The notes beneath the pieces are model-generated. The model did no database searches. It was not told the origin of the DNA and worked only from the letters and a program-made list of their open reading frames with translations. This document shows positions 1,655 to 6,719 of a DNA stretch of 11,891 nucleotides, one piece after another (position 1 is the stretch's first letter; every line of letters starts with the position of its first letter). Position numbers and translations under genes: made by a program. The stretch is from a virus. The stretch lies in the UHGV virus genome UHGV-1567921. One strand, given 5' to 3'.

Positions 1655-2383
1655 TTATTCCTGAATGCGCTTAAACTCGATTACCCACACCCAGGGATTA
1701 GCGTTCCAGCTTTCTTCACCATAGATGGATTCCCACAGGCGCTGGAACGCAACCTTGGCCATTGCGAAATCCCCCTTGGGAGTAAGGAATGTTCCCGGGT
1801 GATCAGGAAGCAAACTTCCAGCAGGCGGAACGCCCTCAGCCCTTGCATCGCATTCGCTGATATCGTTCAACCGTTCAACGCGCACGTTGGTAATTTCCAA
1901 CAGAATGCGTGATGCCCATCGCGGCATGTGAATTGATGGACGCCACCCACCATCAAACTTTTCATTCACAGTGTGAGGTTTCCAGTCGGCATCATCGGGT
2001 ATCGACCATAAGCCGTAATCACCAGGTTTTTGCTCGCAACTGGCCCGATAAATCCTTGCTGCGTTCTTCTCATCGCCACGACAAAGGTTGTCGTTCCAGT
2101 CCACACTGCAACCATCCTCATTGCCTAATATCGCCCATGTTTCACGAACCCAAATTCGATCGCCGACGATACCAAATGGGCAATTGAAAACACTGCTTAC
2201 ACCATCAGCCCCGTACCACTGAAAACCTGCACCAATTTTTCTAACCATCACTGGTGCTTCTGGACCAACTTCCGCAGGCTGATTTTTCATTATCCGCCGC
2301 GTCTGCGTTTTCCTTCCTTCGAGGATGGCCCGGACCATCTCATCGTTGAAAATCATGCCGCGCTCTTTCACTTCGCCTTTCAT
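1655..2383 (-). CDS. ASCH (PUA-like) domain protein with a large internal insertion (242 aa)
   Basis: N-terminal MIFNDEMVRAILEGRKTQTRR and C-terminal WVWVIEFKRI match the two ends of the ASCH fold (compare E. coli YqfB ...ILAGRKTITIR... and ...YVIEFK). ATG at 2381-2383 is preceded by GGGGGA. Stop TAA at 1655-1657 lies 3 nt before the next start. Confidence 0.8.
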   Translation of the reverse strand: MKGEVKERGMIFNDEMVRAILEGRKTQTRRIMKNQPAEVGPEAPVMVRKIGAGFQWYGADGVSSVFNCPFGIVGDRIWVRETWAILGNEDGCSVDWNDNLCRGDEKNAARIYRASCEQKPGDYGLWSIPDDADWKPHTVNEKFDGGWRPSIHMPRWASRILLEITNVRVERLNDISECDARAEGVPPAGSLLPDHPGTFLTPKGDFAMAKVAFQRLWESIYGEESWNANPWVWVIEFKRIQE

Positions 2384-2392
2384 GCATCCCCC

Positions 2393-2479
2393 TTACCCAT
2401 GTGCGACGATGCCGCCAAAAGTGATAGAGAACAGCCAGAAATAGATCGCGGCCATAATGATTTTGAATGCCGTGTTCAT
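2393..2479 (-). CDS. Small hydrophobic protein, 28 aa (MNTAFKIIMAAIYFWLFSITFGGIVAHG), probable single-pass membrane peptide
   Basis: Not in the supplied ORF track (too short). ATG at 2477-2479 with AGGAG 8 nt upstream. Stop TAA at 2393-2395 is followed directly by the GGGGGA Shine-Dalgarno of the ASCH gene, which suggests translational coupling. Confidence 0.4.
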   Translation of the reverse strand: MNTAFKIIMAAIYFWLFSITFGGIVAHG

Positions 2480-2506
2480 ATTTTCAGCTCCTGTGATTGA
2501 TTGGAT

Positions 2507-2540
2507 ACATGCCGCGCCTTGCGGCATGTTTTTATTTTCA
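2507..2540 (+). terminator. GC-rich hairpin followed by a T-tract on the plus strand (intrinsic-terminator-like); on the minus strand it is a 5' UTR stem-loop
   Basis: ACATGCCGC (2507-2515), loop GCCTT, GCGGCATGT (2521-2529): perfect 9-bp stem, followed by TTTTATTTTC (2530-2539). The T-tract is only on the plus-strand side. Confidence 0.45.
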
Positions 2541-2548
2541 CTTTCTCT

Positions 2549-2578
2549 GTTTTAAAAATCAAGATTTATTAGAGCAAT
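2549..2578 (-). promoter_or_regulatory. Copy (a) of the recurring intergenic element ATTGCTCTAATAA-N-TTTTTAAAAC (read on the minus strand); candidate promoter or regulator site
   Basis: The minus strand reads ATTGCTCTAATAAATCTTGATTTTTAAAAC. It matches copy (c) at 4690..4719 at 28 of 32 positions with identical spacing (TTGCTC, 17 nt, TAAAAC). It lies about 100 nt upstream of the next leftward ORF. Confidence 0.35.
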
Positions 2579-3084
2579 TATTGTTGGTGGAGAAGCGCGT
2601 TTTCATACTCCCTGACCATTAACGTAAGTACGCCGTGACTCCTGAAAACACGCGCCACTTCAATCTTATCTTCCAGCGCGAACGCAATTTTACTTAGACC
2701 AATTTTCTTCAGGAGATCAATCTTTGCTGGACCGTCATTTCTGTCATCGGTGGCAGGACGCATAGATAGCAAAGGCTCAGCCCCGTTTGTTACGTACTTC
2801 CGCAGCCAGGCTCGTGTTTTATCCCTTGCGATCTCACAGCGCCCGGTTACAAACCAGACCGTGTAAACGTTAAATAACTGGCGCACCATATCAATAACCG
2901 GAGTGATGGGAGTATCGGTGTCACAGGCGAGATTAAACTCGTTCCAGTCCTTTGTTAATGCACCTTTACCTGGTGGCGGAAGCAAATGCAGTCTGTCTTC
3001 AGTTGCCTCTGATATTGTTCCATCAATATCAACTATGACGATATACGGACGTTCCTGGTGTGCGTGTTTATTGAAAATACTCAA
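2578..3084 (-). CDS. HAD-superfamily phosphatase (168 aa), possibly polynucleotide 3'-phosphatase or nucleotidase-like
   Basis: HAD motif I IVIVDIDGTISE (DxDGT), motif II WFVTGR, and a later K and an ED pair consistent with motifs III/IV. TTG start at 3082-3084 preceded by GAGGAGGG. Stop TAA at 2578-2580. Confidence 0.8.
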   Translation of the reverse strand: MSIFNKHAHQERPYIVIVDIDGTISEATEDRLHLLPPPGKGALTKDWNEFNLACDTDTPITPVIDMVRQLFNVYTVWFVTGRCEIARDKTRAWLRKYVTNGAEPLLSMRPATDDRNDGPAKIDLLKKIGLSKIAFALEDKIEVARVFRSHGVLTLMVREYENALLHQQ

Positions 3085-3103
3085 ATGCCCTCCTCATTGG
3101 ACG

Positions 3104-3137
3104 AAAAAAATGCTGGTGGGCGCACTCCACCAGCATT
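3104..3137 (-). terminator. Rho-independent terminator for leftward transcription
   Basis: AATGCTGGTGG (3109-3119), loop GCGCACT, CCACCAGCATT (3127-3137): perfect 11-bp stem. On the minus strand it is followed by a run of 7 T (plus-strand A-tract 3104-3110). It sits between the 420-aa gene stop (3157) and the HAD gene start. Confidence 0.6.
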
Positions 3138-3156
3138 AAAAGTGACACTGTAACTG

Positions 3157-4419
3157 TCAGCGAACGTAAATAGTGCCGCCGTTCTCTTTTTCCCATGCAT
3201 CGCTACGTGCATAGCAAACATCGAGAAGTCTTCTTGCCGCTGTTTCCTCTAAACCCAATTCGACAACCAACTGCTCATGACGGCGGGTAACCACATCAAA
3301 CAGGGTATGCAACCCTTTAGTTGCCAGATCATCAATGAATTCCGGTTCGAACGGCAGCTCTGCATCTGCCAACATAACCTCTTGCGCCCACTCAACTCGA
3401 CGGACCAATTCCGGGCGGCGGCTTTCCATCTCTTTACAGATCAATTCATGGAAGAACTCTACCCAACCTTCCGGCTGGAACTCGCGGAAAATGGCCAGCG
3501 GCTGGAAGTTTGGCATCAACCATTCGTTGATTCGGATATCAATGGCATAGCCCATGTCGCAGCAGAACTGATAAGCAAAGTCCAGCTTAGAAACGATATA
3601 AGGACGCTCGTTATTGAACTCTTTAGGCGATGAGATCCCATAAGCCAGGAGGCGCGGGAAGAAGGAGATTTGCCCTAACGTCGGATGAAGTTTGCTTGCA
3701 GGGAAACGGCGCTCAGTAATGCCATACATTTCCTTCTTGAGCGTCGCAAATTTGGCATTCTCATTAACCAGCGCGGTAACCTCTGCTTTTTTATTAGCAA
3801 ATGCCACGCGCGCTTCGCTTGCATCTTTAATAGTTTTTTTGAGCTGTTGGTTAAGGTCGGCGACCTGCTTACGCAGTTCCTGTCGCTCGCTTTTAGCTTT
3901 GTTATAGCGTTTCTCAAGGTTAAAAGGATCAAGTTTCATGATCTCTTTATATTGAGATTTTAGCGTTGAAATCTGTGAGTTCCGCAGTTCAACCATCGCG
4001 GTCATTTCATTGAGTTTTGTTTCCAGCTCAATGCTTATACGTTCGGCATTATCAGCACGCTGGTTGGCGTCATGCGTCGCATCGTCGATCGCGTCCTGTT
4101 GCTGGCGTTTCAAATGTTCAATTTGTAGCTGAAGCTCTTCAATTTCTTTACCCTTCAGACCGAGATCCAACTGCATATTTTCAGCTGCATCTACCAGGGA
4201 GTTATGGCTATCAGCTTCTGCGTTATAAACATCAATAAGCTGTGCGTGAAGCATCTCCGCTGACTGAACCGCATTATCAAAAAAACGCGCTGTGAGGTCA
4301 TCACAACTAACGCGGCGTTGCGCGGCCCGGATGTTCTGGATAATGGCCGGGATACCGGCATTCAGGACGTCAGGGATAGATACATTTTCGATTGATTGGT
4401 TTTGTGCTGAAGTGCTCAT
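3157..4419 (-). CDS. Hypothetical protein, 420 aa: long central coiled coil plus C-terminal globular domain, function unknown
   Basis: Long ORF filling the interval with consistent operon packing. The central ~170 residues are heptad-like and rich in E/K/Q/L (EIEELQLQIEHLKRQQQD... KQVADLNQQLKKTIKD...). The C-terminal ~180 aa is aromatic-rich with no motif I recognise. ATG at 4417-4419; stop TGA at 3157-3159. Confidence 0.85.
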   Translation of the reverse strand: MSTSAQNQSIENVSIPDVLNAGIPAIIQNIRAAQRRVSCDDLTARFFDNAVQSAEMLHAQLIDVYNAEADSHNSLVDAAENMQLDLGLKGKEIEELQLQIEHLKRQQQDAIDDATHDANQRADNAERISIELETKLNEMTAMVELRNSQISTLKSQYKEIMKLDPFNLEKRYNKAKSERQELRKQVADLNQQLKKTIKDASEARVAFANKKAEVTALVNENAKFATLKKEMYGITERRFPASKLHPTLGQISFFPRLLAYGISSPKEFNNERPYIVSKLDFAYQFCCDMGYAIDIRINEWLMPNFQPLAIFREFQPEGWVEFFHELICKEMESRRPELVRRVEWAQEVMLADAELPFEPEFIDDLATKGLHTLFDVVTRRHEQLVVELGLEETAARRLLDVCYARSDAWEKENGGTIYVR

Positions 4420-4420
4420 T

Positions 4421-4639
4421 TCAAAGTTCCGTATTAGCTTGTGCTTCGGTCATTTTTCCTAAGTATGAAGGAGGAAGGACTACGCAATTTGTATCCAGTC
4501 CCTCACCTATGGCAGCCTGTAAAATTCTGGCTAAGGTGAGTCTCTTGTTGCGATACCTGGTGATGACATGCCTGATACCGCCGGTCGGTGTAACAAAGGC
4601 GATCAGCCAGTAGTGATATTTCCGTCGGAATGGCCACAT
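4421..4639 (-). CDS. Hypothetical small protein (72 aa)
   Basis: ATG at 4637-4639 with AAGGTG 4 nt upstream. Stop TGA at 4421-4423 is 1 nt before the ATG of the 420-aa gene (coupled). No recognisable motif; composition unremarkable. Confidence 0.4.
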   Translation of the reverse strand: MWPFRRKYHYWLIAFVTPTGGIRHVITRYRNKRLTLARILQAAIGEGLDTNCVVLPPSYLGKMTEAQANTEL

Positions 4640-4653
4640 AGTGCACCTTGTAA

Positions 4654-4719
4654 ATTGCTCTAATAAAAAACGTGATGAGTGTACATCACGTTTTAAAAAT
4701 ATGGAATTATTAGAGCAAT
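4654..4719. repeat. Nested palindrome: 13-bp inverted repeat ATTGCTCTAATAA / TTATTAGAGCAAT enclosing a terminator hairpin
   Basis: ATTGCTCTAATAA at 4654-4666 and its exact reverse complement TTATTAGAGCAAT at 4707-4719. Between them lies a 7-11 bp stem (CGTGATG / CATCACG, extendable with AAAA/TTTT) at 4667-4694. Confidence 0.7.
4665..4699 (-). terminator. Rho-independent terminator downstream of the GT-A-like gene (mainly leftward; weak bidirectional potential)
   Basis: Stem CGTGATG (4671-4677) / CATCACG (4684-4690), loop AGTGTA. On the minus strand the stem is followed by TTTTTTATTA; on the plus strand by TTTT then A-run. Confidence 0.55.
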
Positions 4720-4720
4720 C

Positions 4721-5422
4721 TTATTCTGATTCTCGCTCAAAAAATGAGCTGATAAGGGGAAGCCAATCCTCTGACACTTCGCGAGGTCGCGGTTTGCCGT
4801 GGAAAAAGATTATTCGGCAGTCTTTTGGTAATGCCCCATTCCCCCTGGAGTAACGCGCGCTCGCATATTTTGAACCAGGTTCCACAACATCGGCCTTGTA
4901 ACTTACAAACCATCCTGGATACAGATCCTGAAATGCTGGTGTATCATCGCCCATAACCTTTCGTAAGAACCCCTGGTCACCCCAGCACTCAGTAGTGACA
5001 CAACGAGAAATCCAACCTTCCGGATCTTGCCAGAATGAACTCCAGATATGCGCTTTAACACTATTTGGTATCCACAGGGCACCGCTGCCACGATATTGTG
5101 GATGGTAAAAATCCCTAAGCATGGTGAAACTGGTTGGTGGATGCTCTAGGATTGGGCGTATATCACCGGCAATAACCGTGTCCAAATCCAGATAGAACAG
5201 ATCATCGGTTATATCCGGTCGGAACAACTCGATTTTCGCCCACCAGCCACGGCACTTTTGCCACTGGTTGATCAATGGGATAACTTTGACGCCAGGTACA
5301 TGTAAACACTTCAGGTCTGTCAGGCAAATAATTTCATAGTCTTTTGGCAGTTGATTAACCAGCCACTGCACATCGGAAGCGTTATAGTCACCACCAGAGC
5401 GAAGAACTAAAGCAATCTTCAT
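4721..5422 (-). CDS. Putative GT-A fold (GT8-like, DxD) glycosyltransferase, 233 aa, soluble
   Basis: [11 protein letters not shown] resembles the GT-A DxD nucleotide-sugar motif (compare LgtC ...VLYLDIDVLV...). The N-terminal [17 protein letters not shown] resembles the GT8 N-terminal strand-loop. No transmembrane segment seen. The ATG at 5420-5422 forms an ATGA overlap with the phosphatase stop. Confidence 0.7.
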
Positions 5423-6096
5423 GCTGCACCATCACCTTTCACTTTCATCAATGTCAGGTTTCCGCAAAATACGGCACCAGTGTCGATATACTGCTGATTC
5501 CAGAATGTCTTCGGGCTTTTCACCGGAGTGTGACCAAAGATAAAACGATCTGCGCCCGAAATTTCGCCACCAATATCATCCATCGAATCACTGATACGCT
5601 CGCGCGCCCAGACAACGTTGAAAAGCGGCACCTCCTTACCGAATTGGTATTCATTATCCGGATAGTCGGCATGGGCTATAACGATAGTTTCTTGCCCCGT
5701 GTTCAACTCAATGATATAGGGCAGACGCTTTACCAGCTCCACCAGCGCCCAGGCTAATATTTCCTGATCAGTGTCCAGCATGAAGAACCATTGTCCGCCA
5801 TTCATTAGCCAGTTATTCACGTTGCCATCTGGACTTAACGCATCAATCATCAGCCGCTCATGGTTCCCCATCACTGCCCTGAACCAGGGCATCTGCAATA
5901 GTTCCAGACATTCGACATTTTCAGTACCGCGATCGATAAGGTCGCCGACCGATATCAGTAAATCCTGCGCCGGGTCAAAATCCACACGATGGAGTTCGGA
6001 CATCAGTCTGGTGTAGCAACCATGCAGATCACCAACAACCCAGACATTCCTGTATTTGGTACCGTCGATACGGTGATAAATTGTGGGTGCCATCAT
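5419..6096 (-). CDS. Ser/Thr protein phosphatase, lambda PPase-like (PPP / calcineurin-like metallophosphoesterase)
   Basis: PPP signature motifs GDLHG, GDLIDRG and GNHE, with overall colinearity to lambda ORF221 phosphatase as I recall it ([16 protein letters not shown]... [21 protein letters not shown]... [13 protein letters not shown]). The likely start is ATG 6094-6096, forming an ATGA overlap with the upstream stop; the track's longer start at 6111 adds 5 residues. Confidence 0.9.
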
Positions 6097-6719
6097 GTAT
6101 TCTTCAGCCATTCTTTAAGAGTCATCTGCGGAATACCTCCCATTTTCCCGCATGAAACAACGTCAATCTGTTCACGCGCAGACTGGAATAACAAAGGCAG
6201 GTGACTTAGATTTTTTGGCGTGCCGCCGGAGTGAACGCGTAGTTCTTGCGTAGCGTCAACGCCCACCAGAGCTACATGTTTGAATCCGATATGGAAAGCC
6301 AGGTTCAGAGCACCATATGCACTATTGCCGCTGGCAATTTCATTCTCATCTTCGCAAAGGCCGAAATGTGCGGACCAGCGCCACGCCCACCACTCGGGAG
6401 AATTCGTATTTTTTGGCTCCATGCCGCGTTCAGCCACACGACGGAAGCACAGAACGCCATCTCTGACTTCACGTTCTTTAACATCGGGTAGTGCCATGCA
6501 ATAACAAACACCACGGCGACGGCGGCCACGACCAACGCGCCGCATATTGTCTGGGGATGGATCAAGGGTGAAAAAATAAGAAGCGCGGTTAAGCCAGTCG
6601 ATGGCCCCATTGACCGCTATAATCGGCACTCCGCGCGGCGCAACAAAGTTTGCGGCGCTTGGGCCACTGCCGACGATAATAACGCGATCACTGCCTCTAA
6701 ATTTATTCTTGGGAAACAT
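6093..6719 (-). CDS. Putative nucleotide-sugar glycosyltransferase, CstII (GT42) / MptE-like (DUF115) fold, 208 aa; paralog 1
   Basis: N-terminal [14 protein letters not shown]...VPIIAVNGA resembles the CstII sialyltransferase N-terminus (VIIAGNGPSL...). [26 protein letters not shown] resembles the CstII block TSGVYMCAVAIALGYKEIYLSGID. Clearly paralogous to the next gene. Confidence 0.7.

Follow-up and report, generated by a model that had tools for sequence, protein, structure and literature searches.

The nested palindrome before pmgR in a P1/P7-type phage: a probable C1-controlled promoter-operator region with a putative terminator hairpin between its two operators

What is the role of a palindrome that is nested within another palindrome and fills the narrow gap between two phage genes? 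The question is raised by positions 4654-4719 of an 11,891-nt stretch of viral DNA (UHGV-1567921), and the whole of this 11.9-kb stretch is called the window below, all coordinates and strands being those of the window. The first-pass annotation described a 66-bp region with two-tier dyad symmetry, and offered four functions for it: a strong bidirectional terminator, an RNase III-type processing site, a dimeric protein-binding site, or a compact overlap of terminator and promoter in which transcription starts inside the inner hairpin and escapes termination.

The two-tier symmetry is present exactly as claimed. A repeat search of the window gave outer arms of 13 nt (ATTGCTCTAATAA at 4654-4666 and TTATTAGAGCAAT at 4707-4719), which are 100% complementary and 40 nt apart, and inner arms of 11 nt (4667-4677 and 4684-4694), which are 100% complementary as well and leave a loop of 6 nt. 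Using dinucleotide-shuffled windows (n=300), a perfect 13-nt inverted repeat with a spacer of at most 60 nt is expected 0.01 times per window and was seen in 2 of the 300 shuffles. Folding of both strands, which had been proposed as a check, also gave far better structures than the shuffled sequences (z = -5.2 for the + strand and -6.5 for the - strand; 0 of 200 shuffles equally good). The composite fold of the nested palindrome is predicted at -27 to -29 kcal/mol on both strands, as a helix of 24 bp (13-bp outer plus 11-bp inner) broken by a 12-nt bulge. The outer 13-mer ATTGCTCTAATAA is moreover repeated in the window, with 4 matches at two mismatches or fewer versus 0.28 expected, a number that 0 of 200 shuffles reach.

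The window is that of a P1/P7-type phage, as judged by its identity to the two reference genomes. Positions 3900-5500 are 99.2–99.4% identical to P1 and P7, and positions 1689-11817 are 99.2% identical to P1, colinear and in reverse orientation, so that a P1 coordinate in this range is 86871 minus the window coordinate. Among P1-type variants the commonest, to which P1 itself belongs, has exactly the same 66 bp, and the bases directly flanking them are AAG before ATTGC and TTAC after GCAAT in the window versus AAT and CTAC at the same places in P1. On this evidence the nested palindrome is the Op86a/Op86b-PpmgR region of P1 itself, an already known element, which occupies the same place between pmgQ (hdmD) and pmgR (shtA) and whose promoter is annotated in the P1 record. 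The c1 gene lies outside the 11.9-kb window and is present in the P1 genome, to which the window is 99.2% identical. The genes and the ribosome-binding signal around the element are as follows:

4721-5422, - strand: pmgQ (hdmD in P7), the upstream gene, with its stop codon at 4721-4723 and a single base (4720) before the element.
4644-4649, - strand: Shine-Dalgarno sequence AAGGTG of pmgR.
4421-4639, - strand: pmgR (shtA in P7), a gene for 72 aa that opens the regulated unit.
3157-4419, - strand: pmgS (shtB in P7), the second gene of the pmgR-pmgS unit.

The element thus lies between the stop of the 233-aa ORF at 4721-5422(-) and the start of the 72-aa ORF at 4421-4639(-), and in the P1 annotation all genes from pmgL to pmgV are on the minus strand of the window. 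The upstream gene had been called GT-A-like; RefSeq likewise names PmgQ a glycosyltransferase, while a Pfam search gave no match for it at E <= 0.01. In the same search PmgR had no match and PmgS only a sub-threshold TPR-like match. The pmgR gene has been reported as essential (PMC9024508), and it is an essential head-completion gene.

The outer arms correspond to two annotated binding sites:

4703-4719, - strand: OpmgRa (formerly Op86a), ATTGCTCTAATAATTCC, the promoter-proximal arm, which overlaps the annotated -35; protein_bind 'phage repressor C1'.
4654-4670, + strand: OpmgRb (formerly Op86b), ATTGCTCTAATAAAAAA, the downstream arm, inverted relative to OpmgRa; annotated in P1 and P7.

Both arms are C1 binding sites in the records of P1 (AF234172) and P7 (AF503408). 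For OpmgRa, AF234172 states a monovalent C1-controlled operator which "controls expression of pmgR and pmgS", and in AF503408 the same two operators are named Op(sht[a]) and Op(sht[b]) and regulate the sht operon. The C1 operator consensus is an asymmetric 17-mer, ATTGCTCTAATAAATTT, and 22 operators are dispersed on P1 (PMC8546580). OpmgRa and OpmgRb each share 14 of the 17 consensus positions, the 13-nt core matching exactly, and the other annotated operators in the window (Op88, Op83 and Op82) agree at 13–16 of 17. All five annotated operators in the window adjoin a predicted promoter. As the 13-nt arms match the C1 consensus and are annotated as operators in P1 and P7, the motif seen in the first-pass annotation is the C1 operator, and a known pair has been rediscovered. 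Single dispersed copies of the arm at other intergenic sites also argue that the outer arms are repressor sites, because RNA pairing leaves these copies unexplained.

By annotation and motif match, then, the outer arms are two separate asymmetric C1 operators which face inward, and on the same grounds C1 would be expected to occupy both OpmgRa and OpmgRb. A literature search that left aside the original P1 genome paper found no C1 footprint or gel shift at Op86a/Op86b, and no mention of Op86 in connection with P1. C1 binds each operator as a monomer. The two 17-mers, at 4654-4670 and 4703-4719, do not overlap and have 32 bp between them, and the CTAAT cores are 49 bp apart from centre to centre. 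The idea of a dimeric protein-binding site was therefore right as to repressor sites, on the strength of annotation and motif, and wrong as to a dimer dyad, the arms being two separate monovalent 17-bp operators.

At the c1 promoter of P1, Oc1ab (formerly Op99a/b) likewise places two opposed copies of the C1 operator on one promoter; there the 17-mers share bases and make up an imperfect palindrome of 28 bp overall, whereas here they are 32 bp apart, with the hairpin and the core of the promoter enclosed between them. An Oc1ab-like bivalent operator was considered for the pmgR site and is ruled out by this 32-bp separation and by the monovalent annotation. OpmgT (Op88) and O26 (Op82) in the same window carry the same 17-bp motif over the -35 or the -10 of the promoter of a lytic-cycle gene, but with one operator per promoter, whereas at the pmgR site another operator, in inverted orientation, follows downstream of the promoter. 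With the operators of dimeric repressors such as lambda CI or LacI the site shares the two-fold symmetry around a promoter; however, its half-sites are full asymmetric operators that also occur singly elsewhere, and 49 bp exceeds the half-site spacing of a dimer.

In order to follow the element beyond near-identical copies, diverged relatives were found with PmgR via tblastn in phage and plasmid collections; the search of genome contigs gave only 100%-identical copies. The P1 operator and the 66-bp geometry are kept in Cronobacter phage JK004, in Salmonella plasmid pCFSAN058588 and in about 120 IMG/VR contigs, where its length is 66 bp except for three contigs with 67 bp. These contigs were retrieved by a pattern requiring both arms, and they show constant spacing rather than independent conservation of the arms. 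The P1 operator motif is absent from the P1-like plasmids of Citrobacter and Pantoea. Just upstream of the pmgR homologue, Citrobacter freundii pRHBSTW-00697_3 (PmgR about 35% identical) contains the perfect inverted repeat ACCATACTAATT...AATTAGTATGGT, and the plasmid of Pantoea sp. CCBC3-3-1 contains the perfect inverted repeat AGATACTAAAATAT...ATATTTTAGTATCT. C1 homologues exist in both, with 27% identity (E = 2e-28) in Citrobacter and 27.7% (E = 2.5e-33) in Pantoea. In each plasmid the arms are copies of a dispersed asymmetric motif that also occurs singly at other sites, namely CAGAnnATACTAATTT in about a dozen copies in Citrobacter, and ACAtA-AGATACTAAAAtAT in Pantoea with 8 matches at two mismatches or fewer versus 0–3 in shuffles. 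Between the arms, Citrobacter and Pantoea have 18 nt and no hairpin versus 40 nt in the P1 type, where the extra length is the 28-nt stem-loop. Since an inverted pair of operator motifs is kept in these distant plasmids, the design of two inward-facing operators before pmgR has outlasted two or more changes in the sequence of the operator. Conservation of the outer arms in relatives, which the first-pass annotation had named as a point to look for, holds in all P1-type relatives examined, most of them retrieved by the arm search itself, and does not extend to the two distant relatives found via PmgR, which have other inverted operator pairs instead.

Two promoter candidates lie between and over the operators:

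4690-4718, - strand: PpmgR, a predicted sigma-70 promoter annotated in P1 AF234172, with -35 TTGCTC (4713-4718) and -10 TAAAAC (4690-4695).
4678-4705, - strand: an alternative promoter candidate, with -35 TCCATA (4700-4705), a 16-nt spacer and -10 TACACT (4678-4683), which is the hairpin loop.

As annotated, PpmgR would start near 4683, in the hairpin loop. Its TTGCTC-17-TAAAAC agrees with the consensus at 8 of 12 positions, the -10 being without the final T, which is usually invariant; it was not called by a consensus promoter scan of 4300-5100, and the annotated -10 is not conserved in JK004, which has TGAAGC there. The alternative candidate would start near 4670-4671, at the edge of OpmgRb, and its equivalent in JK004, TTTACT-16-TATCAT, was called by the consensus scan (9 of 12). 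The loop hexamer is TACACT in P1 and TATCAT in JK004, Salmonella and L066, and a -10-like hexamer is found between the arms in all five lineages, with TATCAT in Citrobacter and TTTACA-17-GATATT in Pantoea. The loop hexamer may hence serve as the -10 of the alternative promoter. With either candidate, OpmgRa shares bases with the -35 region; what OpmgRb covers depends on the -10, and is either the start site or the first ~30 bases of the transcript. A late (Lpa-dependent) promoter of P1 was also considered and rejected, as the 66 bp contain no -22 box of the kind present at LPpmgL and LP26 (TAGTCATTT and AAATGACTA). A literature search found no start-site mapping or Term-seq data for P1.

Published transcript levels allow the promoter to be looked at from outside the sequence. 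The default of limma is log2. The values below are per-gene log fold changes obtained with voom+limma during P1vir infection, with the log base unstated (PMC8201110, Table S1), in wild-type (WT) and dksA hosts:

pmgO: WT 7.39 (10 min) and 11.77 (30 min); dksA 6.63 and 11.03.
pmgP: WT 6.99 (10 min) and 11.32 (30 min); dksA 6.52 and 11.19.
ppp: WT 6.95 (10 min) and 11.49 (30 min); dksA 6.09 and 11.01.
pmgQ: WT 7.05 (10 min) and 11.66 (30 min); dksA 6.23 and 11.23.
pmgR: WT 9.02 (10 min) and 10.81 (30 min); dksA 9.00 and 10.44.
pmgS: WT 9.99 (10 min) and 11.70 (30 min); dksA 9.09 and 10.59.

At 10 min the levels are flat from pmgO to pmgQ (about 7.0–7.4 in WT), and then, in both hosts, rise by about 2–3 log units precisely between pmgQ and pmgR. 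At the same time point, strictly late genes such as 22, 23 and sit are at 3.7–5.4, and C1-controlled genes known to be early, for example ant1, kilA and hrdC, at 8.5–10.0 (PMC8201110). This step in the published RNA-seq data supports an early-active promoter in the pmgQ/pmgR gap. A CRISPRi block in pmgQ caused no plating defect, pmgR being essential, which agrees weakly with an independent promoter of pmgR; the argument is a weak one because a guide against pmgR itself likewise gave no phenotype. From the above, the 66 bp are very probably the C1-controlled promoter-operator region of the pmgR-pmgS operon on the minus strand. Among the four functions first offered, the overlap of terminator and promoter with a start inside the hairpin fits best, given that the annotated -10 at 4690-4695 would place the start in the loop and that the transcript level steps up here at 10 min.

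What remains to be explained is the stem-loop between the operators. Three features are needed for this:

4667-4694, - strand: inner stem-loop, with an 11-bp stem made of the core CGTGATG/CATCACG (7 bp) and four A-U pairs, and loop TACACT.
4662-4670, - strand: T-tract TTTTTTATT, directly 3' of the 7-bp core stem.
3103-3135, - strand: terminator-like hairpin after pmgS, with a 9-bp stem, -15.9 kcal/mol and tail TTTTTTTC, from the trimmed-stem scan.

On the minus strand, the inner hairpin starts 26 nt past the stop codon of pmgQ. Its 7-bp core, with four G-C pairs, is worth -8.5 to -9.0 kcal/mol, and the full 11-bp stem -13.0 kcal/mol. The trimmed-stem terminator scan reports it on the minus strand with a 7-bp stem, -9.0 kcal/mol and the tail TTTTTTAT, and it qualifies as a terminator only if the stem is counted without its A-U pairs. 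The consensus terminator scan of 4300-5100 did not call it, likely because the stem was extended through the A-U pairs, which uses up the T-tract. This tract is also the complement of the A-rich 3' end of OpmgRb. The hairpin at 3103-3135(-), which is likely the 3' boundary of the pmgR-pmgS unit, is the stronger of the two (-15.9 versus -9 kcal/mol). Neither hairpin is annotated in the P1 record, and as even the strong one after pmgS is unannotated there, the missing terminator feature is uninformative. At 30 min pmgR is lower than pmgQ by only some 0.8 log units and pmgS has regained the pmgQ level (PMC8201110 values), so that termination, if real, would be partial.

A simpler reading is that the 66 bp are a promoter-operator region only, and that the inner hairpin has no RNA function, being there by chance, as a spacer that sets the phasing of the C1 sites, or as the remnant of an insertion. 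The modest strength of the hairpin, its absence from the standard scan and the little drop in RNA-seq at 30 min all speak for this, and so do the Citrobacter and Pantoea relatives, whose 18-nt gap has no hairpin in it. A stem pair is also broken in several natural variants: about half of the single-base variants in the P1 clade keep the pairing and about half break it, each being present in 1–2 contigs only, which leaves this count no power.

The comparison between clades, however, stands against a hairpin without function. Between the P1 clade and the Salmonella/JK004/L066 clade there are two differences per stem arm, both compensated (G-C to A-U and A-U to G-C), while the neighbouring 8-nt spacer differs at 2–3 of 8 positions and the loop at 3 of 6; these compensatory changes are confined to one clade and are probably one evolutionary event. 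Across 18 distinct variants, 97% of the stem pair cells are paired on the sense strand, 10 G·U cells pair only in the sense RNA, and 3 A·C-type mismatches pair only on the antisense. In JK004 the sense stem is kept through G·U pairs, with -13.6 kcal/mol for the sense hairpin versus -5.8 for the antisense. The T-tract directly after the stem is also constant, T50-T55 being invariant across the 18 variants, and the hairpin follows immediately after a stop codon. The compensated stem and the sense-only G·U pairs favour an RNA hairpin that is read from pmgQ to pmgR, which fits an intrinsic terminator for the pmgL-pmgQ transcripts. Weighing both sides, we lean slightly towards the inner hairpin and T-tract being a modest Rho-independent terminator for these transcripts, and consider the reading as a promoter-operator region alone to be unlikely.

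With the Rho-independent terminators of E. coli and its phages, the inner hairpin shares a stem-loop followed by a T-tract, the position after a stop codon and compensatory change in the stem. It departs from canonical ones in that the stem is short and relatively A/T-rich, the T-tract is part of an operator, and a promoter is nested in the putative terminator hairpin.

The whole palindrome might instead be transcribed as one long RNA hairpin and act as an RNase III processing or stability element between the pmgQ and pmgR messages. An RNase III site calls for some 20 bp or more of nearly unbroken double-stranded RNA, and the 24-bp helix predicted here has a 12-nt bulge in it. The composite fold of -27 to -29 kcal/mol, with z between -5 and -6.5, would suit such an element, and the inverted pairs of the three heteroimmune lineages would all fold if transcribed through. 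But the arm sequences also occur as single dispersed copies elsewhere in each genome, as for repressor binding, and termination at the T-tract would leave the 3' outer arm untranscribed. No Rfam family matches either: with the covariance models of Rfam 15, the window gave no match at the gathering score, and 4550-4820 gave none at E <= 1. We regard a long processing hairpin as quite improbable. A bidirectional intrinsic terminator insulating both strands, and with it the strong one of the first-pass annotation, is hardly credible: the palindrome is perfect, is flanked by A-runs and T-runs and folds in P1 at -13.0 and -13.1 kcal/mol on the two strands, but the stem is modest, the core is followed on the + strand by TTTTAAAA with only four T, which leaves a proper T-tract on the minus strand only, no annotated + strand gene runs toward the element, and the antisense hairpin is weak in JK004.

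Returning to the C1-controlled promoter-operator region with a putative terminator inside it, the following course of events can be proposed. In a lysogen, C1 on both operators would keep RNA polymerase off the promoter or stalled, probably with the help of the corepressor Lxc, and pmgR-pmgS would be silent. When C1 is absent or inactivated (induction, infection), PpmgR would fire early. Transcripts arriving from pmgQ would then meet the hairpin and T-tract and partly stop. Each candidate start of pmgR falls within the hairpin, in its loop or its 3' arm, so that the pmgR transcript would be made without the 5' arm, could not form the terminator and would escape termination.

A more far-reaching version, put forward as a tentative possibility, joins all parts and takes the 66 bp as an insulator, composed of a terminator, a promoter inside its own hairpin and a C1 clamp on both sides, with the loop as the true -10, the operator pair as the ancestral state and the hairpin as a later insertion. 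In that case the -10 would be TACACT in P1 and TATCAT in the relatives, not the annotated TAAAAC. The operator pair, ancestral to the wider P1-like phage-plasmid group, would have tracked at least three changes of repressor specificity, and the hairpin would have been inserted later in the P1/P7 lineage, adding about two helical turns.

The locus matters little beyond P1 biology. Its two operators were made public about twenty years ago with the P1 and P7 records, and the P1 record gives the promoter as well. What is added here is a probable terminator between the operators, doubt on the annotated -10, transcript support for an early promoter, and the finding that in heteroimmune P1-like phage-plasmids the two-operator arrangement is kept and the operator sequences differ. 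These additions are refinements of the annotation and would be no surprise to a specialist. The conserved pair nevertheless offers a simple way to predict operator motifs, and hence immunity groups, in the many P1-like plasmids that carry resistance genes.

In the 66-bp nested palindrome between pmgQ and pmgR (4654-4719), the -10 of PpmgR, the promoter of pmgR, as annotated in P1 is TAAAAC (4690-4695, minus strand), which is without the conserved final T, and Cronobacter phage JK004 has TGAAGC at these positions (L004, 1435-1440). The real -10 may be a hexamer of the hairpin loop, TACACT or TATCAT. A promoter-like match on the strand opposite to pmgR (ATGATA-18-TAAAAT, 9/12) was detected inside the elements of JK004 (L004, 1423-1452) and of a Salmonella plasmid (L007, 1135-1164) and is absent from the P1 element; it probably arose by chance in A/T-rich DNA. 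The length of the element also varies, with 67-bp versions in three IMG/VR contigs (L035, L043 and L083). In the two whose sequences were read (L035 and L083), the added base is located in the T-run or A-run beside the core stem, and the homopolymer runs flanking this stem tolerate or generate length changes.

The gene pmgR (4421-4639) is essential according to its deletion (PMC9024508), and was scored as non-essential in a dCas12a CRISPRi screen (PMC10695390). The knockdown was ineffective, and a possible contributing factor is that pmgR has its own C1-controlled promoter and is strongly expressed from it at an early stage. In the vB_EcoM-Ro157c2YLVW records (MH160767.1 / NC_050153.1, 74630-74845) the same locus bears the label "L: RNA-directed RNA polymerase L", apparently through an error of annotation. 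The pmgR-pmgS unit probably ends at a hairpin between pmgS and pap, for which the P1 record has no annotation:

3103-3135, minus strand: strong intrinsic-terminator-like hairpin, 9-bp stem GCTGGTGGA...CCACCAGC, -15.9 kcal/mol, tail TTTTTTTC

Another hairpin lies between Op88 (the operator OpmgT) and pmgT, where the surrounding genes are on the other strand, and for this stretch the P1 record notes similarity to the E. coli sequence downstream of the hsd loci:

2508-2536, plus strand: G/C-rich hairpin CATGCCGC...GCGGCATG, then TTTTTATT, -16 kcal/mol over the 40 nt that were scanned

Identity with P1 begins at 1689. Positions 1-1688, for which the conversion to P1 coordinates is not valid, show no alignment with P1 itself and match the P1-like phages vB_EcoM-Ro157c2YLVW and vB_EcoM-813R1, and the pmgT-pmgV/upf side is thus a variable segment.

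Dispersed motifs were also found in two P1-like plasmids. The Citrobacter freundii plasmid NZ_CP056338.1 (L010/L011) contains about a dozen copies of an asymmetric motif, together with a C1 homologue (27% identical; 25947-26807 of the record), and the Pantoea plasmid NZ_CP034366.1 (L134/L135) contains another motif and a C1 homologue at 81283-82155 (minus strand). Examples, by record position, are:

13922, 22539, 45620, 47627, 49239, 49270, 55923, 66589 and 68534 of NZ_CP056338.1: motif CAGAnnATACTAATTT

55602, 60294, 60326, 69036, 76156 and 76391 of NZ_CP034366.1: motif ACAtA-AGATACTAAAAtAT

The motif copies and C1 homologue of the Citrobacter plasmid are a candidate operator set of a heteroimmune P1-like plasmid, and those of the Pantoea plasmid are a candidate for a third operator specificity in the P1-like group.
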